Sequence record: OP172784
Source: Escherichia phage ECO07P1
Reading direction: 5' to 3' (one strand)
Length of the DNA stretch: 64,000 nt
The notes beneath the pieces were generated by a model. That model saw only the letters and a list, made by a program, of their open reading frames with translations. It did no database searches and had not been told where the DNA came from. The translations under genes and the position numbers were made by a program. Of the stretch, positions 54,909-58,936 are shown in pieces. The first letter of the stretch is position 1; the number at the start of each line of letters is the position of its first letter.

Positions 54909-55382
54909 ATGTTATTGACTGGCAAATTGTACAAAGAAGAAAAACAAAAATTTTATGATGCACAAAACGGTAAATGCTTAATTTGCCAACGAGAACTAAA
55001 TCCTGATGTTCAAGCTAATCACCTTGACCATGACCATGAATTAAATGGACCGAAAGCTGGAAAGGTGCGTGGATTGCTCTGTAATCTTTGCAATGCTGCG
55101 GAAGGTCAAATGAAGCATAAATTTAATCGTTCTGGCTTAAAGGGACAAGGTGTTGATTATCTTGAATGGTTAGAAAATTTACTTACTTATTTAAAATCCG
55201 ATTACACCCAAAATAATATTCACCCTAACTTTGTTGGAGATAAATCAAAGGAATTTTCTCGTTTAGGAAAAGAGGAAATGATGGCTGAGATGCTTCAAAG
55301 AGGATTTGAATATAATGAATCTGACACTAAAACACAATTAATAGCTTCATTTAAGAAGCAGCTTAGAAAGAGTTTAAAATGA
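54909..55382 (+). CDS. 49: endonuclease VII (Holliday junction resolvase)
   Basis: 157 aa; MLLTGKLYKEEKQKFYDAQNGKCLICQRELNPDVQANHLDHDHELNGPKAGKVRGLLC matches T4 gp49. Confidence 0.92.
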   Translation: MLLTGKLYKEEKQKFYDAQNGKCLICQRELNPDVQANHLDHDHELNGPKAGKVRGLLCNLCNAAEGQMKHKFNRSGLKGQGVDYLEWLENLLTYLKSDYTQNNIHPNFVGDKSKEFSRLGKEEMMAEMLQRGFEYNESDTKTQLIASFKKQLRKSLK

Positions 55383-57196
55383 CAATTGAAAAAGAAATTG
55401 AAGGATTGATTCATAAAACTAATAAAGACCTTTTAAACGAGAATGCTAATAAAGATTCTCGTGTTTTTCCAACTCAACGGGACCTTATGGCTGGTATTGT
55501 GTCTAAACACATTGCCAAAAATATGGTCCCGTCTTTTATTATGAAAGCGCATGAAAGCGGAATTATTCATTTCCATGATATTGATTATTCCCCTGCTCTT
55601 CCATTTACTAATTGCTGTTTAGTAGATTTAAAAGGAATGCTTGAGAACGGATTTAAGCTCGGTAATGCACAGATTGAAACTCCTAAATCAATCGGTGTTG
55701 CTACTGCAATTATGGCACAAATTACTGCACAGGTTGCTTCCCATCAATACGGTGGAACGACTTTTGCGAATGTAGACAAAGTACTTTCTCCTTATGTTAA
55801 ACGCACATATGCGAAACATATTGAGGACGCAGAAAAATGGCAAGTCGCTGATGCGTTGAATTATGCCCAATCTAAAACAGAAAAAGACGTATACGATGCA
55901 TTCCAAGCTTATGAATATGAAGTAAATACTCTCTTTAGTTCAAACGGACAAACGCCTTTTGTAACAATTACATTTGGTACGGGAACTGACTGGACTGAAC
56001 GAATGATTCAGAAAGCAATTCTGAAAAATCGTATTAAAGGTCTTGGTCGTGACGGGATAACTCCTATTTTCCCTAAACTTGTTATGTTCGTTGAAGAAGG
56101 TGTTAATCTTTATAAAGACGATCCGAACTATGATATTAAGCAGCTTGCTCTAGAGTGTGCAAGCAAAAGAATGTATCCTGACATCATTTCGGCTAAGAAC
56201 AATAAAGCTATCACTGGTTCATCTATTCCTGTTTCTCCAATGGGTTGTCGTAGTTTCTTGGGCGTATGGAAAGATTCGACTGGTAATGAAATTCTTGATG
56301 GACGTAATAATCTTGGTGTTGTAACACTGAATCTTCCTCGCATTGCGCTAGATTCTTATATTGGAACACAGTTCAATGAACAGAAATTTGTTGAGCTATT
56401 TAATGAACGAATGGATCTGTGTTTTGAAGCCTTGATGTGTAGAATTAGTTCCTTAAAAGGAGTTAAAGCAACTGTAGCTCCTATTCTTTACCAAGAAGGT
56501 GCATTCGGGGTTCGTCTTAAACCTGATGACGATATAATTGAGTTATTTAAAAACGGTAGAAGTTCAGTGTCCCTAGGATACATTGGTATTCACGAATTGA
56601 ATATTCTTGTCGGTCGTGATATTGGACAAGAAATTTTAACTAAAATGAATACTCGTCTTAAGCAGTGGACTGAAAGAACCGGATTTGCTTTTAGTTTGTA
56701 TTCTACTCCTGCTGAAAACCTGTGCTATCGCTTCTGTAAACTTGATACCGAAAAATATGGAAGTGTAAAAGATGTTACTGATAAAGGCTGGTACACTAAC
56801 AGTTTCCACGTTTCAGTAGAAGAAAATATTACTCCATTTGAAAAGATTTCTCGCGAAGCCCCATATCATTTCATTGCAACAGGCGGTCACATTTCTTATG
56901 TTGAACTTCCTGATATGAAAAATAACTTAAAAGGCCTTGAGGCTGTATGGGATTATGCTGCACAACATTTAGATTATTTTGGTGTTAATATGCCAGTAGA
57001 TAAATGTTTTACGTGTGGAAGTACCCATGAAATGACTCCTACTGAAAACGGATTTGTTTGTTCTATTTGTGGAGAAACTGATCCTAAAAAGATGAACACC
57101 ATAAGAAGAACATGTGGCTATTTAGGAAATCCGAACGAGCGCGGATTTAATCTTGGCAAAAATAAAGAAATCATGCATAGGGTTAAACACCAATGA
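55379..57196 (+). CDS. nrdD: anaerobic ribonucleoside-triphosphate reductase
   Basis: 605 aa; C-terminal glycyl-radical motif RRTCGYLGNP and Cys cluster CFTCGS...CSICG; uninterrupted ORF. Confidence 0.92.
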   Translation: MTIEKEIEGLIHKTNKDLLNENANKDSRVFPTQRDLMAGIVSKHIAKNMVPSFIMKAHESGIIHFHDIDYSPALPFTNCCLVDLKGMLENGFKLGNAQIETPKSIGVATAIMAQITAQVASHQYGGTTFANVDKVLSPYVKRTYAKHIEDAEKWQVADALNYAQSKTEKDVYDAFQAYEYEVNTLFSSNGQTPFVTITFGTGTDWTERMIQKAILKNRIKGLGRDGITPIFPKLVMFVEEGVNLYKDDPNYDIKQLALECASKRMYPDIISAKNNKAITGSSIPVSPMGCRSFLGVWKDSTGNEILDGRNNLGVVTLNLPRIALDSYIGTQFNEQKFVELFNERMDLCFEALMCRISSLKGVKATVAPILYQEGAFGVRLKPDDDIIELFKNGRSSVSLGYIGIHELNILVGRDIGQEILTKMNTRLKQWTERTGFAFSLYSTPAENLCYRFCKLDTEKYGSVKDVTDKGWYTNSFHVSVEENITPFEKISREAPYHFIATGGHISYVELPDMKNNLKGLEAVWDYAAQHLDYFGVNMPVDKCFTCGSTHEMTPTENGFVCSICGETDPKKMNTIRRTCGYLGNPNERGFNLGKNKEIMHRVKHQ

Positions 57197-57663
57197 ATTA
57201 TGATAGATTTTATCCTTGCGATTTTGTGAATGGCCCTGGATGCAGGGTCGTTCTTTTCGTTACAGGTTGTTTGCATAAATGCGAAGGGTGTTATAATAAA
57301 TCAACATGGAATGCTAGAAATGGCGTTCCATTCACTGGTAAAACACTAGAACAATTAATTGAATGTTTGAATAATGATTATATAGAAGGATTAACTATAA
57401 CTGGAGGAGACCCTCTTTATCCTGATAACCGAGATGATGTTCATTGCATTGTTCAAACGGTAAAAAATCTTTATCCGAATAAAAGCATTTGGTTGTGGAC
57501 AGGGTACAAGTTTGAAGATATTAAACAACTAGAAATGCTTAAATATGTTGATGTTATTATTGATGGGAAGTATGAGAAAAATCTTCCGACCAAAAAGCTG
57601 TGGCGAGGTTCAGATAATCAGCGACTTTGGTCAAATACCGATGGGGTGTGGAAACATGATTAA
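57193..57663 (+). CDS. nrdG: anaerobic RNR activating enzyme (radical SAM)
   Basis: 156 aa; Cys cluster CLHKCEGC; ATGA overlap with nrdD. Confidence 0.9.
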   Translation: MNYDRFYPCDFVNGPGCRVVLFVTGCLHKCEGCYNKSTWNARNGVPFTGKTLEQLIECLNNDYIEGLTITGGDPLYPDNRDDVHCIVQTVKNLYPNKSIWLWTGYKFEDIKQLEMLKYVDVIIDGKYEKNLPTKKLWRGSDNQRLWSNTDGVWKHD

Positions 57664-57777
57664 ACTGAATTATATTATTGATACTATAAATGATATGATT
57701 TTTCATTTTGGTCCAGAATTTTATTCGCAGTATAGTTTAGTACTTATCAATGCTTGGTTAATCAATTAAGGGTAAAT

Positions 57778-57993
57778 ATGTATAAATTTCGTAAAGGTTT
57801 AGCTGATTTTCTTACAACTGTAACGTTCTTTTTGTTTATGGCAGTTGGTGCTATTTTTCTTATTCCTTTTATTGCTATATTTTTCGTGATTAGCTTAATT
57901 TCTCCAGAAAAAGGCTTATCTTCTAGCGAGTTCAATGAGCGTCTGGATAAAATTACTAACAAACTGAATTCTGTTCTTGACAAAAAGGCTTAA
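57778..57993 (+). CDS. small membrane protein
   Basis: Start MYKFRKGLADFLTTVTFFLFMAVGAIFLIPFIAIFFVISL; one or two TM helices. Confidence 0.5.
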   Translation: MYKFRKGLADFLTTVTFFLFMAVGAIFLIPFIAIFFVISLISPEKGLSSSEFNERLDKITNKLNSVLDKKA

Positions 57994-57995
57994 TT

Positions 57996-58307
57996 ATGAT
58001 TAGTTTTGAGCGGTATGTGGTAGAGAGTTGGAAGGGTTTTGATATGTTCGGTAATGACTATTATTTCTATGAATGTAGTCTAAATCCTAGTTTTTGGGCT
58101 GGACGAGAACGAGAACTCGAAGAAATTAATAACCGTGCTGAATTGTTAGGTGAATTACCTACGGTGTATTTTACCTTTGACGCATCTGGATTTGTTATCC
58201 AGGTTTATTTTCCTGAAGAAAATTCTGGCGATGATTCTGTTAACCCGCCATACTGGGCTTATCAAGGAATTATTTCTCGTGGAACAAAACTCGAACTTAA
58301 AGAATAA
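57996..58307 (+). CDS. hypothetical protein
   Basis: 103 aa; start 2 nt after upstream stop. Confidence 0.5.
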   Translation: MISFERYVVESWKGFDMFGNDYYFYECSLNPSFWAGRERELEEINNRAELLGELPTVYFTFDASGFVIQVYFPEENSGDDSVNPPYWAYQGIISRGTKLELKE

Positions 58308-58602
58308 GATTGAAGTCTATGGAATTCCAGATGAAGTAGGTCGTTGTCCTGGATGTCAATCAGTTACAAAACTTCTAAAGGAGCTCAATGCTCCTTTTAC
58401 TTTCTATAAAGTTCTTACAAATAATGGTAAGATTGAGTATGATCGCCCACTGATTGTATCTCTTGCTAAACGCGCTGGATTCACATCTCTTAACATTCGT
58501 TATCCAGTCATTTTCATCAATGATTCTAGACAAAAGAACATTAAACACTTCAAAGAAACTCTCATTTCACTTGGATATGATAGAGATATCATAGAAGACT
58601 AA
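58279..58602 (+). CDS. NrdH-like glutaredoxin-fold redoxin (start uncertain)
   Basis: KIEVYGIPDEVGRCPGCQ thioredoxin-fold CxxC; no ATG near domain start, GTG at 58279 after AAGGA chosen; ORF-track GTG start at 58150; overlaps upstream ORF in +1 frame. Confidence 0.55.
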   Translation: MEQNSNLKNKIEVYGIPDEVGRCPGCQSVTKLLKELNAPFTFYKVLTNNGKIEYDRPLIVSLAKRAGFTSLNIRYPVIFINDSRQKNIKHFKETLISLGYDRDIIED

Positions 58603-58611
58603 GACGGGCCC

Positions 58612-58630
58612 TCTGGGCCTTTCTTTCTCA
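58612..58630 (+). terminator. weak terminator-like hairpin
   Basis: GGGCCCTCTGGGCC then CTTTCTTTCTC. Confidence 0.35.
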
Positions 58631-58699
58631 CATTCTGTATATTACCATTCTAACTATCATTCACTTCTTATCATTCCCTAAAATAATTTTCACAAAGTT

Positions 58700-58729
58700 G
58701 TTTACAAGAAGTTCAAACTGTGGTATTAT
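58700..58729 (+). promoter_or_regulatory. T4-type early promoter
   Basis: TTTTCACAAAGTTGTTTAC-N18-TATTAT. Confidence 0.6.
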
Positions 58730-58759
58730 TAACATATGAATTGCCTTTGAGGATTTGAT

Positions 58760-58936
58760 ATGGTTGATAAAGAGATTAAAAGGAAACAGTATTATCGTGT
58801 TAACGGACATATTGTTATTGTTACAGCAGTAGATGATCTAGATGTTCATTATACTGTACTTAAATGGAACAAACACATGATTTGTGACCGTGCTGTATTT
58901 AGTTCAGTTGCTAAGGAAATTAAACTCCATGGGTAA
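58760..58936 (+). CDS. hypothetical small protein (58 aa)
   Basis: ATG after GAGGAT; downstream of early promoter at 58700. Confidence 0.4.
   Translation: MVDKEIKRKQYYRVNGHIVIVTAVDDLDVHYTVLKWNKHMICDRAVFSSVAKEIKLHG

Follow-up and report, generated by a model that had tools for sequence, protein, structure and literature searches.

In bacteriophage T4, nrdH is gene 55.7 (NP_049686; NC_000866, 41805..42113 on the minus strand), which directly follows gene 55.8 and encodes a protein of 102 aa. The T4 gene is annotated from a GTG codon preceded by an AAGGAA Shine-Dalgarno sequence, within a sequence that begins ...agtAAGGAAtagttGTGaaacaaaatAAGATTGAAGTCTATGGA, and the annotated start of nrdH in T4 and T2 is the homologous GTG, aaggaatagttGTGaaacaaaatAAGATTGAAGTC. 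In both phages, an in-frame TAA lies four codons upstream of this GTG. The putative glutaredoxin-type redox activity of the T4 gene product is based on an annotation note in NC_000866. A GTG start of T4-type nrdH is already known from its annotation in T4, and the explanation that we offer here for a related locus is an ordinary one. In the searchable literature we came across no experiment that directly determined where NrdH begins, whether in T4 or in the phage studied here; the literature on T4 ribosome profiling, on GUG starts and on nrdH proteomics likewise yielded nothing on this N-terminus.

We analysed the nrdH locus of Escherichia phage ECO07P1, in which a preliminary description had noted that an NrdH-like redoxin gene lacks an ATG at its expected position and overlaps the preceding open reading frame (ORF) in the +1 frame. 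The readings it offered were a GTG or ATT start, a programmed frameshift fusing the two ORFs, and a frameshift error or pseudogenisation.

Results

Organization of the nrdH locus

The window (the whole 64,000-nucleotide stretch of DNA that was analysed) derives from a T4-like (Tequatrovirus) phage. The ORF map places nrdD at 55379-57196 and nrdG at 57193-57663. Downstream, at 57778..57993 on the + strand, is a 71-aa homolog of T4 gene 55.8, a predicted small membrane protein, which matches phrog_1930 (E = 3e-36) and aligns with T4 55.8; in T4 and T2, 55.8 is the direct upstream neighbour of nrdH. Some annotators also call a 37-aa ORF, similar to RB32ORF074c, at approximately 57656-57769 (457-570 in locus L002; 351-464 in locus L014), which overlaps the end of nrdG and precedes 55.8.

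In the window, 55.8 is followed by ORF103, which encodes 103 aa (57996..58307, + strand; ATG at 57996, TAA at 58305-58307) and matches phrog_2749 (E = 1e-48). The nrdH coding sequence (58279..58602, + strand) specifies 107 aa with a thioredoxin/glutaredoxin fold and a CPGC motif, and its 5' end overlaps the 3' tail of ORF103 by 29 nt in the +1 frame (58279..58307, + strand). Directly after nrdH, an intrinsic-terminator-like hairpin, GGGCCCTCTGGGCC (58606-58620), is followed by a T-rich run; the whole element (58606..58630, + strand) is conserved in T4 and closes the unit nrdD-nrdG-55.8-ORF103-nrdH. Further downstream, a sigma-70-type promoter of early type (58701-58729; TTTACA, 17 nt, TATTAT, with an upstream TG; 10/12 matches), graded strong and also conserved in T4, precedes the 55.6 homolog.

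The redoxin frame, which is +1 relative to ORF103, runs through AAG at 58306, ATT at 58309 and GAA at 58312 into KIEVYGIPDEVGRCPGCQ, where AAG-ATT-GAA-GTC-TAT-GGA encodes KIEVYG. From 58150 to the stop at 58602, the sole in-frame ATG is that at 58231, 25 codons before the Lys of this motif. Because the redoxin protein contains no internal Met, its start must be either ATG 58231 or a non-ATG codon. The observation from which the preliminary description had set out was confirmed in all its coordinates: the redoxin ORF has no ATG after 58231, and it overlaps ORF103, which stops at TAA 58305-58307, in the +1 frame.

Base for base, the same junction recurs in loci L001-L003 and L005-L008, and in L012 it is identical from the Shine-Dalgarno sequence through the first domain codons; there is therefore no indel peculiar to the window. 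A 1-kb query around the junction matched 684 phage records. Coverage of the query reached at least 80% in 421 of them, with an identity of 80% or higher in nearly every case, and these well-covered records are almost all Tequatrovirus-like coliphages. The layout is common to at least 420 independent genomes.

Identity of the redoxin

The redoxin gene is the ortholog of T4 nrdH. In tblastn searches, NrdH of T4T and T2 matched the domain beginning at 58306 with 100% identity over 98 aa. The protein matched the phrog_22 thioredoxin domain (E = 5e-16) and passed the Pfam Glutaredoxin model (PF00462) only marginally, with 23.8 bits against a cut-off of 22.9; the CPGC motif was present. The nearest solved structure was that of T4 glutaredoxin NrdC (1ABA/1AAZ; E = 5e-4). 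Residues 12-83 of the query align to NrdC residues 3-73, with the EVYG strand at NrdC residue 3.

Bacterial NrdH-redoxins carry a C(V/M)QC active site and a WSGFRP motif. We considered membership of the window protein in this family and rejected it: an NCBIfam scan (E ≤ 1) returned no match to an NrdH model, only a sub-threshold match to a YruB-family model (16 bits vs 88.6), the active-site motif is CPGC, and WSGFRP is absent from the sequence. The name nrdH as used here reflects T4 nomenclature and not membership of the family, and it overstates the relationship.

Conservation of the GTG and its Shine-Dalgarno sequence

Our alignment of the junction comprised 19 sequences, namely the window, three near-identical phages from GenBank, nine contigs from IMG/VR, T4, T2, JQD51, RZ, JS10 and Q7622. 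A scan of IMG/VR for loci with NrdH had given nine. Besides the IMG/VR contigs, the alignment spans the genera Tequatrovirus, Gaprivervirus (RZ), Dhakavirus (JS10) and Kanagawavirus (Q7622). The GTG was invariant in all 19 sequences, and each of the 19 had a purine-rich Shine-Dalgarno sequence upstream of it, mostly AAGGA(A/G), with AAGGTGG in Q7622 and GGGGG in L013. Between the GTG and KIE, both the number of codons (3-8) and their sequence varied (EQNSNLKN, GQNST, DQKLT, ENQSL, KQN). RZ has a TGA in frame two codons ahead of the GTG, so that the GTG is the only canonical start in that phage.

In the window, the Shine-Dalgarno sequence AAGGAA (58264..58269, + strand) lies inside ORF103, in its codons Q-G-I, and is followed by the GTG start codon (58279..58281, + strand), the sequence reading ...tatcAAGGAAttatttctcGTGgaacaaaactcgaacttaaagaatAAGATTGAAGTCTATGGA. 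Alignment with T4 nrdH and its upstream gene, a check that had been suggested for this locus, revealed the same GTG and the same AAGGAA in T4, where ORF103 is absent. In the closest genomes, those of REP4, P922 and Ge15, nrdH is likewise annotated from this GTG (58279 in the window). The duplex with the 16S 3' end amounted to -5.4 kcal/mol for the GTG, -1.0 kcal/mol for ATG 58231 and -0.9 kcal/mol for ATT 58309, and neighbouring genuine starts had Shine-Dalgarno duplexes of -2.4 to -6.0 kcal/mol.

We also aligned the codons of ORF103 from five lineages, which provided 98 third codon positions. Across the five lineages 18 of these were invariant, with the protein conserved. In the 9 codons that begin at the Shine-Dalgarno sequence and end shortly after the GTG, 5 third positions were invariant, compared with 13 of 89 elsewhere (Fisher p about 0.01). 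The T of the GTG is among them, though the ORF103 codon to which it belongs switches between CGT (Arg) and TGT (Cys). Such a pattern marks a second constraint, imposed by the nrdH initiation region in addition to the coding of ORF103. Part of the conservation of the GTG could, however, stem from the overlapping (R/C)-G codons of ORF103. Two features count against a GTG start: the Shine-Dalgarno sequence and the GTG are 10 nt apart, near the upper limit of usual spacings, and the annotators of Kanagawavirus Q7622 (L018, 665) preferred to call nrdH from an ATG that lies in frame six codons ahead of the conserved GTG.

More distant homologs start differently. In eight further genera, represented by Jiaodavirus JD18, Gelderlandvirus STML-198, Slopekvirus KLB10, Lazarusvirus Berthold, Pseudotevenvirus RB16, Karamvirus PG7, Krischvirus MIZ6 and Marfavirus EK29, nrdH has an ATG start 0-8 codons before IE(I/V)YG, often overlapping an unrelated upstream gene, for example by ATGA; in JD18 the ATGA overlap is with an ORF unrelated to ORF103. 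The contrast between ATG in these genera and GTG here indicates that the start codon turned over in evolution. GTG characterizes the clade formed by T4 and its closer relatives and is no defect. The preliminary description had pointed to homologs with a canonical ATG at the equivalent position as evidence that would speak against its account; such homologs do exist in the distant genera, but only there, and the close relatives all have GTG.

ORF103 and its natural deletions

ORF103 was detected by tblastn in 526 phage records, in 418 of them at 90% protein identity or more. It is also found in Gaprivervirus, Dhakavirus and Kanagawavirus, and is missing from T4 (L004) and T2 (L014). ORF103 had no match in Pfam or NCBIfam. 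Its AF2 model is confident (pLDDT 81.6 overall) and beta-rich, with a single long helix; a disordered tail at residues 93-103 scores below 60, and a structure search returned no informative structural neighbour. ORF103 is a real, conserved gene, but a dispensable one, because T4 and T2 are without it. It is probably ancestral, since it is present in Gaprivervirus, Dhakavirus and Kanagawavirus, and T4 and T2 would be deletion derivatives.

The Shine-Dalgarno sequence and the GTG are kept in three arrangements: full ORF103, a partial deletion in Shigella phage CT01, and the deletion in T4 and T2. In CT01 (L027, 512-775), a deletion of 266 bp runs between direct repeats of 8 bp, ATTCTGTT (at 57968-57975 and 58234-58241 in the window), and joins 55.8 in frame to the final 24 codons of ORF103 to give 87 aa. 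The T4/T2 deletion takes out everything up to the AAGGAA. Because all three arrangements retain the Shine-Dalgarno sequence and the GTG, expression of nrdH is independent of ORF103. Taken together, the three are a clean series of natural deletions, from which the limits of the nrdH translation-initiation region can be read.

A further variant of ORF103 was seen in P0002 (Logan assemblies, 4 members), where it ends ...YQGNYFSWNKTQT, the third frame of the overlap region. Such an ending implies that 1 nt was gained or lost close to the AAGGAA, whether naturally or through an assembly error.

Discussion

We put the probability at roughly 90% that nrdH has its own initiation site, at GTG 58279 via the AAGGAA at 58264-58269, and simply overlaps ORF103. 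Comparative evidence and the reference annotation make use of this GTG in vivo most likely. Among the starts that had been suggested for this gene, it is the one that agrees with the T4 nrdH annotation and that is invariant across genera and gene arrangements. Initiation there would produce a 107-residue NrdH beginning MEQNSNLKNKIEVYG... The ribosome-binding site of nrdH would be situated inside ORF103, and the first nine nrdH codons would fall within the last 29 nt of ORF103. Because the ORF103 stop is only 26 nt past the GTG, we propose that the two genes are translationally coupled: ribosomes that are translating or finishing ORF103 probably also help initiation of nrdH. Such coupling is plausible in light of the fact that an upstream stop lies near the GTG in every arrangement, 26 nt downstream of it here and 2 nt upstream of it in T4. 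The overlap between ORF103 and nrdH in other lineages is 20-35 nt. In the window, the 29-nt overlap would be cheap for ORF103, because it encodes the low-confidence and probably disordered C-terminal tail of the modelled protein.

A programmed +1 frameshift near TAA 58305, which would fuse ORF103 to the redoxin domain in a protein of ~200 aa, is suggested by the position of the redoxin frame, +1 of ORF103 in this window and in every lineage that has ORF103, and by an ORF103 stop that falls exactly at the domain boundary. However, the +1 relation is automatic, because the GTG sits in nGT-GGn. The stop region is neither slippery nor conserved; the junction codons vary (GAA TAA G in the window, GAA CAA GAT TGA in JQD51, GAC TAA G in RZ, AAC TAA A in JS10 and GAT TGA G in Q7622), and the stop moves by up to two codons. 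We found no conserved shift site, no RNA fold in 58235-58330 more stable than shuffled sequence (z -0.42), and only a chance snoRNA match in an Rfam scan of 57600-58800 (E ≤ 1). In addition, there is no fused homolog, and the ORF103 relatives are all 97-105 aa. T4 and T2, which lack ORF103, have a free-standing nrdH in a different frame relation to 55.8, and JD18 nrdH follows its unrelated ORF with an ATGA overlap. We therefore abandoned the frameshift, which we regard as highly improbable. Equally improbable is a start at ATG 58231, which would add a 25-residue N-terminal extension, MILLTRHTGLIK..., to give a 123-aa protein. This is the only in-frame ATG in the ORF, but it reads AGG in L005, L012 and L015, which have the same gene arrangement, its Shine-Dalgarno duplex reaches only -1.0 kcal/mol, and the site is deleted in CT01, which keeps the gene. 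An in-frame stop separates the site from the domain in RZ, and in T4 and T2 a TAA lies just upstream of the GTG.

Somewhat less remote, yet still very unlikely, is a start at ATT 58309, or termination at TAA 58305-58307 with reinitiation right after it, either of which would yield a 97-aa protein from the Ile of KIEVYG. All close relatives retain the ATT, which is located 2 nt past the ORF103 stop. Its conservation, however, is explained by the residue it specifies, the conserved Ile in beta-strand 1 (IE[IV]YG), and in the distant homologs this Ile comes after the ATG start and is not itself the start. The ATT has no Shine-Dalgarno match (-0.9 kcal/mol), and in JQD51 and Q7622 the ORF103 stop lies after it. 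ATT starts are very rare in E. coli, where infC and pcnB are examples. Finally, a sequencing or assembly indel, or pseudogenisation, could be imagined to have destroyed an original nrdH ATG, as the gene has no ATG where the distant genera have one. Against this, the T4 reference has the same GTG, the NrdH domain is intact, with its CPGC, and 100% identical to that of T4T and T2, and hundreds of genomes that were sequenced independently carry this junction. The sharing of the layout by so many genomes leads us to exclude sequencing error and pseudogenisation, the least credible of these explanations.

Returning to initiation at the GTG, we considered whether its embedding in ORF103 serves a function of its own. 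ORF103 could be a partner of NrdH in an anaerobic ribonucleotide-reductase module, with the embedded start enforcing coupled, stoichiometric translation; we think this unlikely. If it were true, the deletions that spare the Shine-Dalgarno sequence and the GTG would show selection on the coupling site. Against a requirement for such a partner, T4 and T2 can dispense with ORF103, and no fold is recognisable in it.

The finding matters mainly for annotation quality, and no new biology is implied. Because nrdH has a GTG start and no in-frame ATG, gene callers that accept only ATG truncate or miss it. In the RefSeq record of JS10 (L017; NC_012741, 734-1000), nrdH is annotated from an internal ATG, and strand 1 and most of the N-terminus are lost. 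In several public records nrdH is unannotated, unnamed or called hypothetical, and the annotation of its start, as with the upstream ATG chosen for Q7622, is inconsistent.

Compared with known systems, the locus shares with prfB-type +1 frameshifting a downstream ORF in the +1 frame and a stop at the junction. It differs in that a slippery P-site codon, a conserved shift site and a stimulatory Shine-Dalgarno sequence at the proper spacing are all lacking, and nrdH has its own conserved initiation site and exists without ORF103. With coupled, overlapping phage genes the locus has in common that the ribosome-binding site and start of the distal gene lie inside the 3' end of the proximal gene, and homologs have ATGA or longer overlaps at the same junction; the differences, none of them notable, are an overlap of 29 nt, slightly above the 1-4 nt that is common, and the GTG start in the window. 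With bacterial NrdH-redoxin, the class Ib ribonucleotide reductase (RNR) reductant with a CVQC active site, the window gene shares its name, a thioredoxin-like fold and RNR gene neighbours, but it has CPGC and its neighbours are the class III (anaerobic) genes nrdD and nrdG. T4 NrdC has the same fold, in which strand 1 (KVYG) is followed by the CxxC motif. That relationship is remote (E = 5e-4); NrdC has CVYC instead of CPGC, and its ATG start lies two residues before the strand. T4 nrdH itself is the ortholog, within the same syntenic order nrdD-nrdG-55.8-nrdH-terminator-55.6, with the same GTG, the same AAGGAA and the same downstream terminator. The window differs from T4 in the additional ORF103 between 55.8 and nrdH, in which the nrdH start is embedded, in an N-terminal extension that is 5 codons longer (MEQNSNLKNK vs MKQNK in T4), and in a Shine-Dalgarno-to-GTG spacer of 10 nt rather than the 6 nt of T4.
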